NCBI GenBank assembly: GCA_934096295.1
Contig: CAKOLL010000005.1
Coordinates: 16,761-80,760 of the forward strand
From: an uncultured Bacilli bacterium
Lineage (GTDB): Bacteria > Bacillota_I > Bacilli_A > RF39 > UBA660
Direction: 5' to 3'
DNA length: 64,000 bases
This document shows positions 16,540 to 64,000 of this stretch, in pieces. The position numbers were made by a program, and so were the translations under genes. Positions within the stretch are counted from its first letter, which is position 1; the number at the start of each line of letters is the position of its first letter. Under the pieces are notes generated by a model, which had not been told where the DNA came from, ran no database searches, and worked only from the letters and a program-made list of their open reading frames with translations.

Positions 16540-18534
16540 TTATTTATAACAATATCTATTATTATATTTAGAAAATCCCCGTGGACACGAATATGTTGTT
16601 GAGCAATCATTATAACACCCACCACCAGTAGTAACACATCTTGATGCCGTTTTATCTATATTTGGAAAACGAGAAGGACAAGTTTTATAATAATAATCAT
16701 AACAAGTTTTCCAAGTAGGTTCATAAACGCCGTATTTACAGCTTTTACTTGCTATTTCCGATGAAGAAGCATTATAATAACACACTAAATCACATGTTTC
16801 TGTTGCTGGAGTACATACCTCTTGACAACTTTCATCCTCATCAGTTGTTGTTATTGTTATTTTACAACTGCCAGTATTCCCTGCCGCATCTTTAACATAT
16901 CCATAATATGTTCCAGTACTTATTGATAATGTTTGATTTGTATAACTTTCTGTGGTACTTGATGATATGCCAGAATTTGATACATCACTATCTTTACTAC
17001 CAAAAACAATCTTGGACCCACTTAAGGATAAACTACATTTTGGTACAGTTTTATCAATTTTTAATGTTTTGCCCACGGACGAACCACTACATTTTGATTC
17101 ATAACAAGCTCTTACATATATAATATTATTTATATCTTTTTCATATACAAAATTTACACTATTTCCATTTATTATTTGAGCTGATAATACAATCCAGCTT
17201 CCATTACCAATTTTATATTGGAATTGTGTTACTAAATCATTTGCTGAACCAGGGGTTATTTCAATATATATAGATTTATTTGTCCACACCCCATTATATA
17301 TTTCTCCATTACTATTTTCATATTTAGTTTCAATTAATGGTGTTGATGGCACTCTAGGAACAACCTTTAATTTAGTTGATGCATTTGCTGTTTTACCATT
17401 GCCTCCGACTGCTGTACATGTTAAAGTATATTCACCAACAGTTAAATCTCCAGTTTTCTCATAATTACAAGATAATGTTCCCCCGCTTTTTGAATACTTA
17501 ACATCAAAATATGATGACACAACATAATTTTCATTAACAAAGATTTGATTTTCAGCATTTTTTGCCTTAATCCTTGGACCATCTTCATCTATTTTATCAA
17601 CTTTTATAATTTTCTCTTCACTAATATTTCCTACAACATCTTTTACACAAACTTTGTATGTTCCAGTTTTATTAACAACCACATTTTTACTACTATCAAA
17701 TTTATCACAAGAAAGATTAGACTCCACTACAGAATAACCATTTATACCAGATCCCATTCCATCACTTGCTATTATTTCAATATTTTTTTCATAAGACCAA
17801 TTAGTATCAACTTTTATTTCATTTATAACAGGGGCTTCCATATCAATTTGAATATTTCTTGATGCAATTCCGTTTGTATTATCTTTAGTTATTTCACATT
17901 TATAATTTACATTTCCCACAAGTTCAATATTAGTTTTTACAACATTTTCATTACTTGAAAATCCCGTATTTGTTGACCAATTATATTTTATATCTTCACC
18001 AGTTAACAATTGACCTTCATATGATATACCTAAAGTAATATTTTCATTTATCCATTTATTTTCAAGCGCAACACATTTATTATCAACAACTTTACATATA
18101 TCATAAAGTGTTTTTCTCTCATATTTTTTACATACCCCATTTTCTCTTCCAAGATTTTCACCCAATTCTGATGTATAAACTCCATCTTTATATTCCGATT
18201 TTATTAAATAACAATTCATACTCGTTTTATCTCTCGGATTATATATATCAGTTTCATCATCGGGCTTTACATAACCTTCTTTTATTAAATCCTCAACACT
18301 TATCGTGGTAACACCTGTTTTTTCAGCATATTCACTAGCTTTTGTTTCTAAATAAAAAACTAAATTATTATATTCTTTTTCTAAAACACTTTTTCTAACA
18401 TTTATAAAAATAACTACAGACAAGGTTACTAAAATAGAAAGAATAACAACTACAGCAATCAATTCTGTTAATGAAAAAGCTTTCTTTCCTAATTTAAAAA
18501 TTGTTTTTTTATTTTTAGTGATTAATTTTTTCAT
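16540..18534 (-). CDS. large pilin-like protein 1 (664 aa): type IV prepilin-like N-terminus, Ig-like modules and a Cys-rich C-terminal tail
   Basis: Basic leader followed by KAFSLTELIAVVVILSILVTL, a class III signal/prepilin motif with Glu at +5. It is paralogous to the next two genes and its tail ends SCPRGFSKYNNRYCYK. Confidence 0.6.
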   Translation of the reverse strand: MKKLITKNKKTIFKLGKKAFSLTELIAVVVILSILVTLSVVIFINVRKSVLEKEYNNLVFYLETKASEYAEKTGVTTISVEDLIKEGYVKPDDETDIYNPRDKTSMNCYLIKSEYKDGVYTSELGENLGRENGVCKKYERKTLYDICKVVDNKCVALENKWINENITLGISYEGQLLTGEDIKYNWSTNTGFSSNENVVKTNIELVGNVNYKCEITKDNTNGIASRNIQIDMEAPVINEIKVDTNWSYEKNIEIIASDGMGSGINGYSVVESNLSCDKFDSSKNVVVNKTGTYKVCVKDVVGNISEEKIIKVDKIDEDGPRIKAKNAENQIFVNENYVVSSYFDVKYSKSGGTLSCNYEKTGDLTVGEYTLTCTAVGGNGKTANASTKLKVVPRVPSTPLIETKYENSNGEIYNGVWTNKSIYIEITPGSANDLVTQFQYKIGNGSWIVLSAQIINGNSVNFVYEKDINNIIYVRACYESKCSGSSVGKTLKIDKTVPKCSLSLSGSKIVFGSKDSDVSNSGISSSTTESYTNQTLSISTGTYYGYVKDAAGNTGSCKITITTTDEDESCQEVCTPATETCDLVCYYNASSSEIASKSCKYGVYEPTWKTCYDYYYKTCPSRFPNIDKTASRCVTTGGGCYNDCSTTYSCPRGFSKYNNRYCYK

Positions 18535-18608
18535 AACATCACCTATATTAATAATAAATTAAATATTAGATTTAGTCAAATAAAATTCAAAACGCTTTAC
18601 GTTTTGAA

Positions 18609-21173
18609 TTAACTTAATTTATAACAATAACTATTGTTAAGTTTTGTATATCCACCTGAGCAATAATAAACTGTTTCGTATCCCGTATCATAACATGTTT
18701 TAGACACATAAGAACTACCTGAACAATCAGTACCTGAAGTATCTAAATAAGGGAAGTCCGAGGTACAACTTGAAGAATTTTTCCATTTCCAACATGTATC
18801 ATAAGCACCTTCTGTTGCGGCTCCACTACATTTACCATTCTTTTTTTCAGTTGATGTCATATACCTATAGCATACATATCTACAAGATTCTTCATAACTA
18901 CCACAATCATATGAATACGAATAAGGTTCCTCATATGAACTTGTATATTCTATTGAAGCACTACAACGACCAGTATTTCCAGCCGCATCCACAACATGAC
19001 CATAAAATGTTCCTGTACTCATAGAAGCAGTTGAACTTCCATAACTAGCAGTTGTCGTCTTGGAAATACCATAACTAGATACATCACTTGATTTATTGCT
19101 AAAAGACACTTGTGAACGAGTTACAGATAATTTACAAGTTGGTGCAGTTTTATCTATTTTCAAAGTTTTTCCAGCTGATGCCTCACCACAATTATTATCA
19201 TTACAAGCTCTTACATATATAGTATTATTAATTTCACTGGTATATATAAAGCTTCCATTATTTTCAGACATTGTAAGTGAAGAAATATTTGTCCAAGCAC
19301 CATTTCCAATTTTATATTGATATTTCGATACTACGTCTTTTGTTGTTCCTGCTGTTATTCCTATATAGATAGATTTATTAGTCCAAGTACCATTATAATC
19401 ATTACCATTTGCATTTTCATATTTTGTAATAATTGTTGGAGCGGAAGGTATTTGTGGAACTATTTTTAATGTTGTCGATGCACTTGCTGTTAATCCATTT
19501 CCTCCAGTTGCTATACAACTAACAGTATAAGTACCTAATGCAAGACCAGAAGTATCTGCTGGGTTACAACTAACACTACCGCCACTTTTTGAATATGTTA
19601 CTGTAAAGAATGATGATGTATCTTGTAATATTTCTATTTGAACATTATTTGAACTATTTTTAGCTTTAATTACTGGACTTATTTTATCTATCCTTAAAGT
19701 TTTTCCAGCTGATGCTTCTCCACAGCCTTTTTCATTACATCCTCTTACATATATGATTCCATCTATTTCTGAACTATAAACAAAGTTTCCTTGATTACCA
19801 TTTAAGCTTAAATTATTAGGTTTAGTCCACGTTTTATTATCTAAACTATATTCATAACGTTCTATTAAATCTACACTTCTTCCAGGTGTTATACTTATAT
19901 AAATAGATTTTGATGTCCAGGTACCATTATAATCAGCACCGTTTGCATTTTCAAGTTTAGTTGTGAGAACAGGTGCAGCTGGAATATCAGGAATTACACT
20001 TAACTTAGTTGAAGCTGTTGCTGTTAATCCATTTCCTCCGACTACAGTACACTCTAATGTATAATCACCAATTGCTAAATTTCCTGTTCTTTTATAATTA
20101 CAAGTTACTGTACCACCACTTTTAGCAGGATATGTAACAGTAAAATATGTAGAAGCAACTTCATTATCAGTACCTACAATTATTTCATTTTCAGCATTTT
20201 TAGCTACAATTGACGGTGCTTCCTTATCAATCTTATCTACTTCTATTGTTTTTTCTACACTAACATTTCCAACTTTATCTTTTACACAAACTTTATATGT
20301 ACCATTTTCATTTACTTTTAAATTCTTATCTCCAGCATAATTTGTACATTCACTATTTACTTTAGCAATTGCATAACCACCAATACCTGACCCCATTCCA
20401 TCACTTGCTAAAACATCAATATTTTTACTTACACTCCAGTTTGTATCCATTTTTAATTCATTTATAACTGGAGATTCTTTATCAATTTGAATGTTTTTTG
20501 TTGCAACTCCATTTGCATCTTTACCATCTGCATCTTTTCTAGAAACCTCACATTTATAATTAATATTTCCAACCAACTCAACATTTGTAGTAACCATATT
20601 TTCATTACTTGTAAATCCTGTATTAGTTGACCAATTATATTCTATATTATCTCCAACTAATAATTCATTATTATATGCTACACCTAAAGTAATATTATCA
20701 TTTATCCAATTACTATTAATACTTACACATTTATTATTAATAACTTTACAAATATCATAAAGTGTAGTTCTATTATATTTATTACATTTTCCTTCGGTTT
20801 GTCCTAAATTACTACTTAATTTAGCAATATATTCTCCATTTTTATATTCCATCTTTAGTATATAACAATTCATACTTGAGTTATCTCTCGGATCATATAT
20901 ATCAGTTTCATCATCAGGTTTTATAAAACCCTCTTCAATTAAATCTTCTACACTTATTGTTGTTACACTAGTTTTATTGGCAAATTCAACAGCTCTGGTT
21001 TCTAAATAAACAACCAAATTATCATATTCTTTTTTTAATACATTCTTTCTTACATTGACAAATATAGCTACAGTAGCAGTAATTACTAAAGATAAAACAA
21101 CAATCACAGCTATTAACTCTGTTAAAGTAAACGCTCTATTATTTAATACTTTAACTTTATTATTAGATTTCAT
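18609..21173 (-). CDS. large pilin-like protein 2 (854 aa) with an internal duplication of a roughly 180-aa Ig-like module
   Basis: NRAFTLTELIAVIVVLSLVITATVAIF prepilin-like N-terminus. The module TC..GGNGLTA.AST.L.V.P..P.AP...TK.ENANG.DYNGTWT.KSIYI.IT...CGEASAGKTL.IDK is present twice. Tail ends ...NNSYCYKLS. Confidence 0.6.
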   Translation of the reverse strand: MKSNNKVKVLNNRAFTLTELIAVIVVLSLVITATVAIFVNVRKNVLKKEYDNLVVYLETRAVEFANKTSVTTISVEDLIEEGFIKPDDETDIYDPRDNSSMNCYILKMEYKNGEYIAKLSSNLGQTEGKCNKYNRTTLYDICKVINNKCVSINSNWINDNITLGVAYNNELLVGDNIEYNWSTNTGFTSNENMVTTNVELVGNINYKCEVSRKDADGKDANGVATKNIQIDKESPVINELKMDTNWSVSKNIDVLASDGMGSGIGGYAIAKVNSECTNYAGDKNLKVNENGTYKVCVKDKVGNVSVEKTIEVDKIDKEAPSIVAKNAENEIIVGTDNEVASTYFTVTYPAKSGGTVTCNYKRTGNLAIGDYTLECTVVGGNGLTATASTKLSVIPDIPAAPVLTTKLENANGADYNGTWTSKSIYISITPGRSVDLIERYEYSLDNKTWTKPNNLSLNGNQGNFVYSSEIDGIIYVRGCNEKGCGEASAGKTLRIDKISPVIKAKNSSNNVQIEILQDTSSFFTVTYSKSGGSVSCNPADTSGLALGTYTVSCIATGGNGLTASASTTLKIVPQIPSAPTIITKYENANGNDYNGTWTNKSIYIGITAGTTKDVVSKYQYKIGNGAWTNISSLTMSENNGSFIYTSEINNTIYVRACNDNNCGEASAGKTLKIDKTAPTCKLSVTRSQVSFSNKSSDVSSYGISKTTTASYGSSTASMSTGTFYGHVVDAAGNTGRCSASIEYTSSYEEPYSYSYDCGSYEESCRYVCYRYMTSTEKKNGKCSGAATEGAYDTCWKWKNSSSCTSDFPYLDTSGTDCSGSSYVSKTCYDTGYETVYYCSGGYTKLNNSYCYKLS

Positions 21174-21251
21174 TTACTATTCACCTATCATAATAATAAT
21201 TTAAAAATAAATTAATGTCAATAAAAAGAAGCGAGTTACCTCGCTAACATT

Positions 21252-23957
21252 TTATTTATAACAATATGAACTTCCAACTCTTGAATATCCAAATGGACAA
21301 CTATAACCACCAACAGCACAAGTTACATTAGTTTTATTTTTCTGATTTGTTTGTGAATTTTTATAGCTTCCCGAACAACTTGAGTACTCTGAACTTGGTG
21401 TACAACTCGCTAATCCCGATTTCGTAGAACTTGATGGACTATACTCATAATAGTAATCTGGAACTGTACTAGATACTGAACAACTAACTTTTGTTTCTTG
21501 ATAATTAGAACTAGTACACTCAAACGGATTATCTATACAACTAGTTTGATTATATTCATTACTTCCAGAGTCAAAAGAATAAGAATAAGTTGGGGTCTTT
21601 ATAACTTTACCTGTTGATTTTTTACACTTACTTTGATTACACCAAGAACAAGTTGACCAACCCGAAGCACAAGTATCAGCAGATCGAGAACATGTATATT
21701 TTGCATCAGATGTTTTGGTTGAAGACCAACCTGATGAACAACTAGTCTGATTTGTTAAAGTACATTTTCCACCGCTTAACGAACCAGATGCACAATAATT
21801 ATATTTACCCAAACAAGCACTAGATACTTGAGACCATGAACAACCACTGGTCCGTGTACATTTTGAATAAGAATTAGAAAATTCTGTACACATTTTTTGT
21901 GTAGGATTTTTAGTACATTTATATCTAGCATACGATGTTCGGGTTGAACTCCACCCACTTGAACATGATGTTTGATTATTTATATAACAACTTCCATTAC
22001 TATATGTTCCTGATGAACAACCATTATAGCTACTACCTGAAGTATAGATATAACAATAATCTCCAGTATTTGGATATGTTCCTGATGAACAACTTATAGA
22101 TGTTCCTGATTCAGTTCTATCACAATAATATGATGTTTTTGTATAATATTTTATCGGATGATTAACATAACTTTCAGAACATGTTGTAGTAGTTTGATTA
22201 TAATATAATGTTCCATTTAATACCTCAGAACTACACATTCCAGTATTTCCTGCTCTATCATAAACATGACCATAAAAGGTTCCAACACTCAAACTTTTAC
22301 TTGAATTTGTATATTCTGGATTAGCACTATTATTAACTCCAGATTTTGAAACATCACTAGATTTAGATCCTATAGAAATTCCACTGGCTGTCACTGATAA
22401 AGAACAAACTGGTGAAGTTGTATCTATTTTTATAACTTTTCCATTTGATGCAGAACTGCACTTATCACCATTACATGCTCTAACATATATTGTGTTTTCA
22501 ACTTCTTTTGTATATATAAAGCTTCCATTTGCACCATCTCTTTTTAGATTATCAGGAGTTTGCCAACTTCCAGTTCCTATTTTAAATTGATATGTTCCTA
22601 CAAAATCATTTTCTTTAGTTGGTGTTATACTAACATATACTGATTTATTAGTCCATGTTCCACTATATAAATCTCCATCAGCATTTTCATATCTTGTTTC
22701 TATTACTGGTGTAGATGGTGTATATGCTAAAACATTTAAATTAGTTGATGCACTCGCAGTTAATCCATTTCCTCCGGTTGCTGTACATGTTAGAACATAA
22801 TCACCCGGAGTTAATCCATTCGTAGTTTCATAATTACACTTTGTTGTTCCACCACTTGTTGAATATTTAACTATAAAATATTCATCTTTAACAACTTTAT
22901 TTATACCCATATAAATTTGATTTTGTTCATTCATGGCTCTAATTTCTGGAGGATTTTTATCAATTGTATCCACCTTTGTTTCAAATTTTTGACTTACATT
23001 TCCAGCTTTATCTATTACACAAACATTATAAGTCCCATTAGAGTCAACTTTAACTTTTTTATTATTTTCAAACTCAGCATCCATACAATCAGTTTTAGAA
23101 TCTACTACAGCATAACCACCTATTCCTGAGCCCATTCCATCATTGGCTATGATTTCTAATTCTTTACTAGTGCTCCAATTAGTATCCATCTTAACTTCAG
23201 TTATAACCGGAGCCTCCATATCTATTTTAATAATTTTGGTAGCAACCCCATTTTTATCATTACCATCTTCATCTTTTCTAAATACTTCACATTTATAATT
23301 AATATTTCCAACTAACTTTACATCAGTTTCAACAGTTTCTTCATTACTTGTAAATCCTGTATTTGTTGACCAATTATATTCAACATCTCCAGTAATTAAG
23401 TTATCATCAAAAGAAACTCCTAAAGTAATGTTTTTGTTTAGCCACTCATCTCCAATAGCTTCACATTTTCCATTAACTATTTTACAAATATTGTATCTTG
23501 TGTTTCTATCATATTTACTACATTTTCCATCTGCATCTTTCAAATTTTCACTTAACTTTGCAATATATTCTCCATCCTTATATTCTAATTTTATCAAATA
23601 ACAATTCATACTTGAATTATCTCTCGGGTCATATATATCTGACTCATCATCTGGCTTTATATATCCTTCTTTTATTAAGTCTTCTACGCTTATCGTAGTT
23701 ACTCCAGTTTTATTGGCAAATTCAACTGCTCTAGTTTCTAAGTAAACCACAAGATTATTATATTCTTTTTCCAATACATTTTTCTTTATATTTATAAATA
23801 CTGCTACAGTAGCTGTTATTAACAATGACAAAACAACTATAACAGCTATTAACTCTGTTAATGTAAAAGCTCTATTATTTAATTTTCTTTTTTTATTTTT
23901 AGACTTTATCATAATATCACCTATCATAATAATATTAAAAATTTCGTAACTAGTCAA
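21252..23957 (-). CDS. large pilin-like protein 3 (901 aa as listed; probable true start at 23912, MIKSKNKK..., preceded by AGGTGA)
   Basis: NRAFTLTELIAVIVVLSLLITATVAVF N-terminus. The first 330 aa or so are highly similar to protein 2. It has a very long S/T/C/Y-rich tail ending SCPFGYSRVGSSYCYK. Confidence 0.6.
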   Translation of the reverse strand: MTSYEIFNIIMIGDIMIKSKNKKRKLNNRAFTLTELIAVIVVLSLLITATVAVFINIKKNVLEKEYNNLVVYLETRAVEFANKTGVTTISVEDLIKEGYIKPDDESDIYDPRDNSSMNCYLIKLEYKDGEYIAKLSENLKDADGKCSKYDRNTRYNICKIVNGKCEAIGDEWLNKNITLGVSFDDNLITGDVEYNWSTNTGFTSNEETVETDVKLVGNINYKCEVFRKDEDGNDKNGVATKIIKIDMEAPVITEVKMDTNWSTSKELEIIANDGMGSGIGGYAVVDSKTDCMDAEFENNKKVKVDSNGTYNVCVIDKAGNVSQKFETKVDTIDKNPPEIRAMNEQNQIYMGINKVVKDEYFIVKYSTSGGTTKCNYETTNGLTPGDYVLTCTATGGNGLTASASTNLNVLAYTPSTPVIETRYENADGDLYSGTWTNKSVYVSITPTKENDFVGTYQFKIGTGSWQTPDNLKRDGANGSFIYTKEVENTIYVRACNGDKCSSASNGKVIKIDTTSPVCSLSVTASGISIGSKSSDVSKSGVNNSANPEYTNSSKSLSVGTFYGHVYDRAGNTGMCSSEVLNGTLYYNQTTTTCSESYVNHPIKYYTKTSYYCDRTESGTSISCSSGTYPNTGDYCYIYTSGSSYNGCSSGTYSNGSCYINNQTSCSSGWSSTRTSYARYKCTKNPTQKMCTEFSNSYSKCTRTSGCSWSQVSSACLGKYNYCASGSLSGGKCTLTNQTSCSSGWSSTKTSDAKYTCSRSADTCASGWSTCSWCNQSKCKKSTGKVIKTPTYSYSFDSGSNEYNQTSCIDNPFECTSSNYQETKVSCSVSSTVPDYYYEYSPSSSTKSGLASCTPSSEYSSCSGSYKNSQTNQKNKTNVTCAVGGYSCPFGYSRVGSSYCYK

Positions 23958-49746: not shown

Positions 49747-50254
49747 TTCCTTCTTTCTTTTTATTTGTACTGCCTAGCCCACCAACTCTTGTTTTATTAA
49801 CACAATCATCATCTGTTGTTAAAAATTTAACAAATATCCCTTGAGCATAAGCATCTCCTTTATTAATTATATATTCCTTATCTCCATGATTTTGAAGACA
49901 AATCCACATATGTCCTTCATTATCAGGGTTATTATAATAATCACTTTCAATAATACCCACTTGGTTTGTAAGTCTAACATTATATTTAAAACCCATACTA
50001 CTTCTAACTACAAGCATTAACATTTCATCACTTTCAAATGTAGCTTTATAACCAGTTGGTATTTTTAAAATTTCATTTGGTTTAATAACATAATCTTTTA
50101 TGGCAAAAAAATCATAACCTGCACTATACTTTGTCCCTCTTAAAGGGAGCATATAATCATCATACAAAGTTTTATTATCCCCAAAAACTTTAGTAAATTC
50201 TGGATAACTAATTTTTTCAAATTTTCTCATATTTACCTCCAATAAAAAAATCAC
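49733..50254 (-). CDS. dut: trimeric dUTPase-family protein
   Basis: All five dUTPase motifs are present: AGYDF, RSS, GIIESDY, GDAYAQ and RVGGLGSTN. Overlaps the metG start. Confidence 0.75.
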   Translation of the reverse strand: MIFLLEVNMRKFEKISYPEFTKVFGDNKTLYDDYMLPLRGTKYSAGYDFFAIKDYVIKPNEILKIPTGYKATFESDEMLMLVVRSSMGFKYNVRLTNQVGIIESDYYNNPDNEGHMWICLQNHGDKEYIINKGDAYAQGIFVKFLTTDDDCVNKTRVGGLGSTNKKKEGNENE

Positions 50255-50257
50255 AAA

Positions 50258-50490
50258 CTAAGGACGAGTATAACCCGCGGTACCACCTTAATTCATGATT
50301 TATCATGCAACTTAAAATTTATAACGTAATTACCCGATTTTAACTCCAGAGCCATGTTCGCATATCTTCGTTTTTTCTTTTCCACCAACCAAGAAATCTC
50401 TATGAAACTAGGATATCTACTCTTTCCTTCTTCGTTAAACTAAACATAGTTTACCATACATTTTATGTAAATGCAATTTTTTTAATAATT
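50258..50490 (-). promoter_or_regulatory. T-box riboswitch leader upstream of dut-metG
   Basis: Minus-strand AATTAAGGTGGTACCGCGGG matches the T-box consensus AAUUAGGGUGGNACCGCG (plus coordinates 50274-50293). It is followed by a U-run before the RBS, and upstream there is a stem I-like AGAGTAG...GGTTGGTGG region. The specifier is not resolved. Confidence 0.55.
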
Positions 50491-61738: not shown

Positions 61739-61760
61739 CATATTTTTTCCTCCAAAAAAA

Positions 61761-61837
61761 ATGTGCACACAAACATAGGCTGATGTGGCTGCTATTTTCC
61801 AATCCTGACCAAGTTACAGCATATTTGTTGCACGGTT
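61761..61837 (-). ncRNA. ffs: small (4.5S-type) signal recognition particle RNA
   Basis: Minus strand ...ACUUGGUCAGGAUUGGAAAAUAGCAGCCACAUCAG... matches the universal domain IV motif (GGUCAGG-N3-GGAA-N3-AGCAGCC). The 5' and 3' arms pair (GUGCAACAAAUAUGCUG / CAGCCUAUGUUUGUGUGCAC). A sigma-A promoter TTGACA-17-TACGAT lies upstream at about 61842-61870, and the RNA is followed by a T-run. It sits in the conserved tadA-scr-dnaX neighbourhood. Confidence 0.6.
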
Positions 61838-62023
61838 AAATCGTATCAAATAAACTAATACATGTCAATACTTTTCATAACATTTCATGATTTAAATTTC
61901 TTGTTGATAACTAATATTTTTATTTTTAACACACTCAATTTTTTAGCATATATTAGCCAAATTTTGTAACTAGTTAAAAATATAAAATTACTTTATTTAG
62001 CAATTTTTGATATTTTTCAAAAT

Positions 62024-62186
62024 ATTTCCCGGGAAATATTTTGTTAATAATTATAGTTTTCAAACTGTTGTTAATAATAAAGATCAAACAACCATTTACC
62101 CCTTTATTTAATTAATAAAAATCATTTTATCATTTTACAAAAAAACAAATAAAAATATTATGTTAACTAATTATTTCCCGGGAAAT
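62024..62186. promoter_or_regulatory. two perfect 14-bp Noc-binding-site (NBS) palindromes, ATTTCCCGGGAAAT, 149 bp apart
   Basis: Exact matches at 62024-62037 and 62173-62186 in an ORF-free AT-rich region. The sequence is identical to the B. subtilis NBS consensus. Confidence 0.6.
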
Positions 62187-62286
62187 AATTTTCATAAAAA
62201 GAAACCATGTTTTAATAAAAAAATATTTATCACAATCGTATGTTCGCGTCAAAAAAATATTTTATTATTATATTAATGTTTCACGT

Positions 62287-63052
62287 GAAACAATATATAT
62301 TTATCTTTACCAACATTCTATTAATTAATCAATCATAATTTCTATTACGTAATATAATAATAAAGAAACATATTATCAACACACGTTTCACGTGAAACAT
62401 ACTAGAAAATACAAAAATTAATACATGATCACATCATAATAATACAAATTCCCAATAATTTTACTACACAAATAAAAAATATCTATTAAATTAACAAATA
62501 ATAATAAATTATTAACAATGTTTCACGTGAAACATAAAAAAATTATCAATATTAGTAAAATAAAAAAAAAGAAATTATCAAAAATCAAAGTAACAATAGA
62601 TATATAGAATAAGTAAAATATAAACAAATTATCAACGCACGTTTCACGTGAAACATCGCATAAAATAACAATATAACACAAGAAATAATTAAATAATCAA
62701 TAAAAAATAATATTCTATAAAAAAAGAAAGATCCAAATACTTATTTAAATGCTTATTAAATAACAAGTTATCAACATATGTTTCACGTGAAACATTAAAC
62801 TAATAATCAAATTAACCATAATTAGTACAATAAATAATATATATTTAATAAAATTAAACGTTAATTCAAATAAATATAATTTTAAAAAATATATAATTAT
62901 AAACAAGTTATCAACAACGTTTCACGTGAAACATATACTCTATTTCATTAGAATCACTGATAATTAATAATTAGTATTATTAAACATAAAATTATTAATA
63001 ACAATAATATTAAATAATTAAAAATTTATCAACACATGTTTCACGTGAAACG
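62287..63052. repeat. array of seven parS (ParB/Spo0J centromere) palindromes, TGTTTCACGTGAAACA, at 97-139 bp spacing; five of them are immediately preceded by a DnaA-box-like TTATCAACA/TTATCAACG, one by TTATTAACA, and one (62287) by no such motif
   Basis: The 16-mers sit at 62287-62302, 62384-62399, 62519-62534, 62640-62655, 62779-62794, 62918-62933 and 63037-63052. Three match perfectly and four have a single mismatch at an outermost position. The 14-bp core GTTTCACGTGAAAC is perfect in all seven. Confidence 0.8.
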
Positions 63053-63220
63053 TACATAAAATAATTCAAATAATTATAATTATTAAAAAAATATTTACTA
63101 AATTGTTTGTTGATAACTATTAGATCTTATAAAAAAATAATTAATTGCTAAAATTAATATGTGTTATTAATTCATACCTATTATACATTGTATATACCTG
63201 ATATGTAATAAAAAAGAGAC

Positions 63221-64000
63221 CTATTCAGTCCCTTCATTTGTAACATTTACAGCTGTTTTCTCAGCCACATTATCTTCCATTTGTGATTGATTAGTTTCTT
63301 CTAAAGAATCATTGTTTTGTTCTTCTTTTTCAACTAAACTTATGGTTGAAACTTTTTGATTATCCTTTAAGTTAATAAGTCTTAACCCTTGAGTGACACG
63401 ACCTAATAAGGAAATTTGATCAAGTGGCATTCTCATTGTCATACCCGAATTAGTCATAATAACAAGTTCTTGATTTTCTTGAACTATTTTTACACTAACT
63501 AAATTACCATTTTTATCAGTAATATTCATAGCTTTAACACCTTTTGATCCTCTTCTTGTTTGACGATATTCGCTTACTTTAGTTTGTTTACCATAACCTT
63601 TTTCAGTTACAAGCAATATAGTATCTTCTTCTTTAACAATTTCAGAACAAATACATTTGCTTCCATCTAAGGTAATACCCTTAACACCAGAAGCAGTACG
63701 TCCCATAACTCTAATTTCCCCTTCATTAAATTTAACCATTCTACCACTATCGCTACCTAAAAGTACTAAGTCATTACCAGTTGTTTTCTTAACATCTATT
63801 AATTTATCATTTTCTCTTAAAGAAATACAAATCTTTCCACTATTTCTAATGTTAGCAAATTCACTAATTAATGTTTTCTTAACAACTCCGCCTTCCGTAG
63901 CAAATAATAAGTATTTAGATTCTTCTTCACGATTAATTTGAATAACAGCATTAATTCTTTCATCTTTTTCAACTTGAAGCAAATTAACAATTGGAATTCC
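63221..64000 (-). CDS. gyrA: DNA gyrase subunit A, C-terminal (beta-pinwheel) domain; the gene continues beyond the window end
   Basis: Repeated GyrA-box-like blades (...RGSKGVKAMNITDKNGNLVS..., ...GRTASGVKGITL...). The ORF is open to the window boundary. Confidence 0.85.
   Translation of the reverse strand, partial: GIPIVNLLQVEKDERINAVIQINREEESKYLLFATEGGVVKKTLISEFANIRNSGKICISLRENDKLIDVKKTTGNDLVLLGSDSGRMVKFNEGEIRVMGRTASGVKGITLDGSKCICSEIVKEEDTILLVTEKGYGKQTKVSEYRQTRRGSKGVKAMNITDKNGNLVSVKIVQENQELVIMTNSGMTMRMPLDQISLLGRVTQGLRLINLKDNQKVSTISLVEKEEQNNDSLEETNQSQMEDNVAEKTAVNVTNEGTE

Follow-up and report, generated by a model that had tools for sequence, protein, structure and literature searches.

A pair of Noc-binding-site (NBS) palindromes abuts a dense array of parS sites close to the replication origin of an uncultured Bacilli bacterium, and the lineage encodes, directly after rsmG, a ParB-family protein whose DNA-recognition residues match them. 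We consider it probable, at roughly 0.7, that the palindromes are functional NBS serving as loading sites for this Noc-type paralog, here called X, with binding predicted from the sequences of sites and protein. The system would be a variant of Noc–NBS, in which the new part is the NBS pair at the parS array together with the divergent Noc-type protein. Among CTP-dependent DNA clamps, Noc and ParB have been studied most, and in the conventional view each uses its own set of sites, parS lying at the origin and NBS being dispersed elsewhere. Here the loading sites of two CTP clamps appear to have been kept about 100 bp apart across a gut-bacterial family, in the company of DnaA boxes; the literature searched yielded no account of a conserved pair of NBS adjoining such a dense array of parS.

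Nine palindromes in one origin-proximal spacer

[quoted passage not shown] By this match to the 16-bp palindrome both copies are classed as NBS on sequence, and no third NBS match is present in the 64-kb window even when two mismatches are allowed. From base composition, 8 × 10−5 copies of the 14-mer and 1 × 10−5 copies of the 16-mer would be expected in 64 kb, against two observed; the whole window holds three CCCGGG hexamers, two of which belong to NBS1 and NBS2. The copies start 149 bp apart, and NBS2 starts 104 bp ahead of the first parS, leaving a gap of 90 bp. A preliminary description of this DNA had reported the 14-mer as perfect, present twice at a distance of 149 bp, about 100 bp ahead of parS, Noc-type in identity and very unlikely to arise by chance, and our measurements agree with it on each of these points; the motif count that it proposed as a check returned only the two copies within the 64-kb window. 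It had further called the nine palindromes a phased array at 100–150 bp. Centre to centre they are separated by 149, 105, 107, 135, 121, 139, 139 and 119 bp, so the spacing held (105–149 bp) but the phasing did not: the distances correspond to 10.0–14.2 helical turns and are not multiples of a turn, and the nine sites are therefore clustered without helical phasing.

All nine palindromes lie inside a single untranscribed spacer of 1.45 kb that runs from the end of gyrA to ffs, with gyrA transcribed toward the array. On a metagenome contig of the same strain the gene order is dnaA-dnaN-comK-like-recF-gyrB-gyrA-spacer-ffs-tadA-dnaX-ybaB-recR-bofA-holB, and the spacer is located about 9.5 kb from dnaA. 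The GC skew of the window is strongly negative, which fits an origin just past its right end, and the GC content is 26%. Canonical parS near oriC, by which a ParABS system is recognized, are thus present as seven sites about 9 kb from dnaA. We also noted a ComK-family gene between dnaN and recF (L001:2433-2861, just past the right end of the window), where other Firmicutes have the small yaaA/remB-type gene.

Table 1 Features of the gyrA–ffs spacer and its borders, in window coordinates
Feature	Position	Strand	Remarks
ffs, small SRP RNA (Rfam)	61754-61839	−	with its promoter, the element 61754..61868 bounds the spacer
ffs promoter, TTGACA-17-TGnTACGAT	61840-61868	−	
Inverted DnaA-box-like TTATCAACA	61902..61910	−	ffs-side edge of spacer
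NBS1	62023..62038	none	perfect 16-bp palindrome TATTTCCCGGGAAATA; position kept in close relatives
GTTAACATAAT motif	62157..62167	−	accompanies NBS in close relatives
NBS2	62172..62187	none	perfect 16-bp palindrome TATTTCCCGGGAAATA; copy nearer the parS array
parS array, seven sites	62277..63052	none	0–1 mismatch to TGTTTCACGTGAAACA
parS sites	62277-62292, 62384-62399, 62519-62534, 62640-62655, 62779-62794, 62918-62933, 63037-63052		
DnaA-box-like TTATCAAC(A/G)	62373..63034 (62373, 62629, 62768, 62908, 63026)	+	2–3 nt 5' of five parS
Inverted DnaA-box-like TTATCAACA	63108..63116	−	gyrA-side edge of spacer
gyrA 3' end	63213..64000	−	stop at 63221; terminator hairpin 63213-63235

The parS sites are interleaved with a second repeated element. 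A DnaA-box-like sequence, TTATCAAC(A/G), adjoins five of the seven parS of the window on the same strand, and inverted copies bracket the spacer. Exact TTATCAACA occurs 16 times in the window, where 2.5 copies would be expected, and six of the 16 fall within the spacer. Boxes of this type, accompanied by TGTGGATAA, also fill the spacers upstream of dnaA and between dnaA and dnaN in related species, and by this occurrence in oriC spacers the TTATCAACA-type sequence is, on the sequence evidence, a bona fide DnaA-box variant in the lineage. Among relatives the box stands on the same side in 57 of 321 parS and on the other side in one, which suggests composite DnaA-box/parS units. At the 61902 box, AGTTATCAACA is invariant in seven of nine close species and carries one substitution in the other two.

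Another short motif, WTTRGTTAACATAATA, comes after the NBS of close relatives (L007–L019), where it was found beside 14 of 75 NBS, nearly always in the same orientation; it is not conserved across the wider lineage. We also considered whether the NBS and parS sites might be promoters, and rejected this, as the count of promoter-like sequences in the spacer was no higher than in shuffles.

Conservation and placement of the sites in related species

Relatives of the host were drawn from a DnaA-based scan of species-representative genomes, which gave 80 species and 1.54 Mb of origin-region DNA. All are MAGs of uncultured gut bacteria, with contigs of up to about 1 Mb; most of the labels read Bacilli, Tenericutes or Erysipelotrichaceae, and the set also includes genomes labelled 'Firmicutes bacterium CAG:460', 'Clostridium sp. 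CAG:609', Candidatus Onthocola and Candidatus Ventrenecus. In the 1.54 Mb from these roughly 80 species, the exact 14-mer accounts for 78 of the 87 CCCGGG hexamers, and its copies without exception have the T..A flanks that complete the 16-mer. NBS density over the relatives' origin regions is about one per 20 kb, and there is none in the other 62 kb of the window. The positions are kept among species with 66–97% DnaA identity, and in a close alignment of nine species the NBS, the last parS, the AGTTATCAACA box and the ffs promoter stand out as islands of identity in a scrambled AT-rich spacer.

Placement relative to the array was counted in the 51 species with an array of at least three parS and enough flank. 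An NBS lies within 2.2 kb on the origin-distal (ffs/dnaX) side in 31 of the 51, on the proximal side in one and inside the array in four. Where DnaA identity is 84% or more (the closer clade), the NBS is found 73–813 bp past the last parS, and in the distant clade a pair of NBS 72–90 bp apart sits inside dnaX, 1.7 kb from the array. This arrangement differs from that of known NBS, which are scattered over the origin-proximal chromosome (PMC7383237, PMC5540599), whereas here a pair 149 bp apart has been conserved at the border of a densely packed parS array. Origin-proximity of the sites is common to both.

The arrays themselves hold the same position in the 51 species, with 3–19 parS copies spaced 37–833 bp apart. 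They share with Firmicutes ParB (Spo0J)–parS systems the canonical parS sequence TGTTNCACGTGAAACA and a location near the origin, about 9 kb from dnaA in the window. They differ in density, with seven parS in 0.8 kb here and some relatives carrying 40- or 64-bp tandems, compared with 1–3 parS per 10 kb at the ordinary parB loci sampled, and further in the pairing of parS with a DnaA-box-like sequence and in the NBS that flank the array. Individual arrays illustrate this variety: L068 (18665-19202) has 14 tandem copies with a 40–41-bp period, L042 (19164-19631) has eight copies at 64 bp, and L039:17522-19127 is the array of another relative within the range of copy numbers.

Conserved NBS also occur inside mnmE, in the jag-mnmE spacer and inside recF. 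The intragenic sites, in mnmE, recF and the dnaX linker (examples at L026:6055, L066:13697, L066:20411/20483 and L076:15954/16044), are always read in the frame ATT TCC CGG GAA ATA, encoding I-S-R-E-I, and use TCC and CGG, which are rare codons in this genome; in mnmE the NBS substitutes for a variable stretch and is not an insertion. Conservation, combined with a single intragenic frame written in rare codons, points to selection on the DNA sequence itself, and judged by these comparisons the NBS is under strong selection at the DNA-sequence level across about 80 species. The NBS thus has a longer history and a wider distribution in Bacilli than one would gather from the cultured models. The jag-mnmE stretch is otherwise a variable island (L016:1501-5533, L087:3464-5983, L214:3286-5328), with a cargo that changes by species and includes a DUF4143 ATPase, paired HTH_3 genes and large Ig/fn3-like or Hint-like proteins.

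The NBS and parS half-sites differ at two positions, A1 and C6 in NBS and G1 and A6 in parS (PMC7383237, PMC8429893). Scanning the window's lineage with the common form T-N-TT[T/C]C-N4-G[A/G]AA-N-A returned about 380 sites, of which about 290 are parS-type and about 93 NBS-type (76 exact and 17 with a single central change). None of the roughly 380 is a hybrid (G1/C6 or A1/A6), and neither hybrids nor an alternative palindrome were found in the species that lack NBS or in the one with a divergent X (L058). The preliminary description had entertained an intermediate in ParB/Noc site specificity; at the DNA level the sites instead form two discrete classes. The lack of hybrids, taken with residues Q173 and R201 of X described below, argues for a separate parS-specific protein besides X.

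Protein X and the search for a second ParB

The single ParB-family protein detected in the lineage, X, was read in congeners (95–96% DnaA identity), as its locus lies outside the window. The gene stands directly after mnmE-mnmG-rsmG, which is the position of noc in B. subtilis, after rsmG (gidB), and about 10 kb beyond oriC on the side opposite to the spacer. The preliminary description had drawn a comparison with Clostridia that encode a second ParB-like gene upstream of soj-spo0J. Neither half of this applied: the host belongs to an uncultured, small-genome Bacilli lineage (NCBI: Ca. Onthocola in Bacilli incertae sedis), and X is followed, in the two species groups inspected, by a small ORF, a convergent PBP gene, argS and prfA. 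The absence of soj-spo0J downstream of X also sets the locus apart from the known Noc–NBS systems.

Specificity in this protein family has been traced to four positions, which are R173/T179/A184/G201 in ParB and Q/K/K/R in Noc (Jalal et al. 2020, PMC7383237). Q173 reads A1 and R201 reads C6, a single lysine, at 179 or 184, is enough, and parS binders without exception carry R173 (Jalal et al. 2020, PMC7383237). X carries Q173, K179, T/S/N184 and R201 in all 36 of the 36 orthologs with a readable HTH, and only the divergent L058 protein, with S at position 173, was seen to depart from this. The examination of HTH specificity residues in a ParB paralog, which had been put forward as a check on the sites, thus yielded a protein with the NBS-reading combination Q173, K179 and R201; the congeners are among the species that encode this candidate cognate protein, which has Q173, R201 and one lysine of the 179/184 pair. 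X also matches PF02195 and PF17762, combining a ParB N-terminal CTP-binding motif with a ParB-type HTH, and its CTP-pocket motifs FQPR, GERRxKA and ENIQR are conserved, a combination of recognition residues and CTP-binding motifs that it shares with Noc of B. subtilis and S. aureus. The closest solved structures are of Noc (7NG0/7NFU, 195 bits; B. subtilis Noc 7OL9, 180 bits), compared with 173 bits for Spo0J (6SDK). On the strength of its recognition residues and conserved CTP motifs, X is predicted to be an NBS-specific CTP clamp.

In other respects X departs from Noc. It scores 229–290 bits on TIGR04285, below the curated cut-off of 315. When cores of equal length (about 195 aa) are compared on the same model, B. 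subtilis Noc scores 311, X 270, Spo0J 249 and other ParBs 239–251; identity of X is 45–53% to Noc and 43–48% to ParBs. By score and identity, X is intermediate between Noc and ParB. Its likely start lies 21–29 residues before the end of FQPR, compared with 46 in B. subtilis Noc, and about 8–10 residues ahead of the first beta-strand, with an in-frame stop upstream and PDB alignments that begin at chain residue 23–28. This leaves no room for the N-terminal 26-residue extension, comprising the amphipathic membrane helix and alpha2, that is specific to Noc (PMC8429893), and judged from its sequence X is without either element. The membrane step of the Noc mechanism is therefore not transferable to it as such. 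Because it fails two defining features of Noc, the TIGR04285 cut-off and the N-terminal helix, we do not file X as Noc; T/S/N184 is a further difference.

X differs from Noc at its other end as well. Its extension of 150–350 residues varies in length, has no Pfam match past residue 205 and is predicted to be disordered, except for a short helix, PNKFFNFLE(D), and a small C-terminal alpha+beta domain. PNKFFNFLE(D) is invariant in X (for example in L087:10001-11149 P0053 and L214:10001-11224 P0007), and we suggest that the FFNFLE helix may be a relocated membrane-binding or partner-binding helix. The predicted Noc-type reader would then have lost the helix that defines the Noc mechanism and gained another conserved one.

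A second ParB was sought with the motif GERRxRA and by tblastn with X and B. subtilis Spo0J over the window, the 80 origin loci (in 80 species, 10 kb on each side of dnaA) and the DNA past X (10 kb in two species groups), and only X was recovered. A canonical parS-reading ParB (R173/G201) was not found in the approximately 115 kb inspected, about 10% of a genome of approximately 1 Mb, a further difference from Firmicutes ParB (Spo0J)–parS systems. No ORF with a ParA Walker box, KGGxGK[ST], was present in the window, the 80 origin loci or the 10 kb beyond X, and Pfam annotation of the window returned no ParB, ParA or MinD. A degenerate AT-codon version of the HTH of canonical ParB, K-S-R..[IV][AST]N.[LIM]RLL, was used to scan metagenomes; among the at least 120 matches listed, none was attributable to the lineage and none came with NBS, and most were marine SAR11-like, with a few gut Clostridia-type or Bacilli-type soj-parB loci. 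S. aureus provides a precedent within Bacilli for Noc and ParB present without ParA, and X resembles S. aureus Noc in that no ParA is seen nearby. The preliminary description had posited two ParB-family proteins at the locus: the NBS-type protein was found and the canonical parS-reading ParB was not.

Possible roles of the NBS pair

Starting from the observed site identity, selection, placement and matching recognition residues, and drawing on analogy with B. subtilis Noc for binding, CTP-dependent spreading, a membrane or division function and a second protein, we propose how the locus might work. X dimers would nucleate on both 16-bp NBS. With CTP bound by the ParB motifs that are intact in their N-terminal part, they would close as clamps and slide outward along the neighbouring DNA, giving a nucleoprotein domain over an origin-proximal centromere region that also carries the dense parS array and the DnaA boxes. 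A separate parS-specific ParB, which we expect, would occupy the seven parS, and the distance between the loading points of the two CTP-clamp systems would be about 100 bp. The NBS may mark, limit or tether the centromere domain; a domain edge or a tether is suggested by their position, which is almost always origin-distal to the array. As X has no N-terminal helix, tethering, if there is any, would go through the conserved PNKFFNFLE helix.

SlmA and its SBS sites in E. coli offer an analogue from outside the family, in which a site-specific binder likewise marks the origin-proximal chromosome in the coordination of division with segregation; SlmA differs in having a TetR-family fold, in acting directly on FtsZ and in having no link to parS or to a CTP clamp (general knowledge; PMC5540599). 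The 1.45-kb spacer would make a natural test bed for whether neighbouring related clamps block, mix with or ignore one another, and also for alternative wirings of nucleoid occlusion or origin tethering and for the origin of Noc versus ParB specificity.

The asymmetry of placement could also be explained if the NBS pair acted mainly as a boundary element, a roadblock or insulator that keeps ParB clamps from sliding into ffs-tadA-dnaX, and not in nucleoid occlusion. ParB and Noc are both sliding clamps that are confined by obstacles (PMC8429893), the NBS are origin-distal in 31 species and proximal in one, and gyrA transcription enters the array from the other side. This proposal does not account for the NBS far from parS, in mnmE, recF, dnaX and the jag-mnmE spacer, nor for the distant-clade pair, which is separated from the array by 1.7 kb and lies inside dnaX, and the blocking of ParB by NBS-bound Noc has no evidential precedent. 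We regard a boundary function as unlikely, though it deserves to be kept in mind.

It is rather doubtful that one protein serves both classes of site. Under this explanation the lineage would have lost canonical ParB and ParA, X would be its sole ParB-family protein, and parS would be served by a second binding mode of X or by a factor that is not a ParB, giving a single-protein centromere that would run on rewired specificity. The recovery of one ParB-family gene and no ParA from the window, the 80 dnaA loci and 10 kb beyond X speaks in its favour, as do the absence of soj-spo0J from its ancestral place after noc, the nearly equal distance of X from Noc and ParB, and the existence of experimental dual-specificity ParB variants. 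Those variants, however, mostly carry T or S at position 201 (Jalal et al. 2020, PMC7383237), and R173 is invariant in parS binders, whereas in X these positions are Q173 and R201. Two sharp classes of site free of hybrids are not what a single tolerant reader would enforce, and with an NBS reader alone the parS arrays should drift toward NBS. The search for ParB and ParA covered only about 10% of the genome, and S. aureus keeps a ParB without ParA alongside its Noc.

We think it very improbable that the palindromes are operators at which an unrelated transcription factor controls ffs or the tadA-dnaX operon. Their palindromic form and their location upstream of the ffs promoter, with NBS1 about 155 bp from the −35 element, would suit an operator, but the sites do not overlap that promoter, and the same 16-mer is conserved in three unrelated coding regions and in the jag-mnmE spacer. 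The site is, moreover, the NBS, and the lineage encodes a protein with the matching recognition residues. Chance palindromes, or the footprint of a restriction-modification system or mobile element, for which one could cite the SmaI/XmaI core CCCGGG and the GTTAACATAAT motif that travels with some copies, are effectively refuted by an expectation of about 10−5, by the embedding of most lineage CCCGGG in the 14-mer and by positions conserved over the full range of DnaA identity, and a search for repeat or transposase context found none.

Two further observations concern the window outside the spacer. On the − strand, positions 16540-23957 hold three consecutive large ORFs (664, 854 and ~900 aa) with no Pfam match recorded. 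A T-box leader (Rfam RF00230, 107 bits) at 50257-50441, also on the − strand, lies directly upstream of an ORF ending at 50254.
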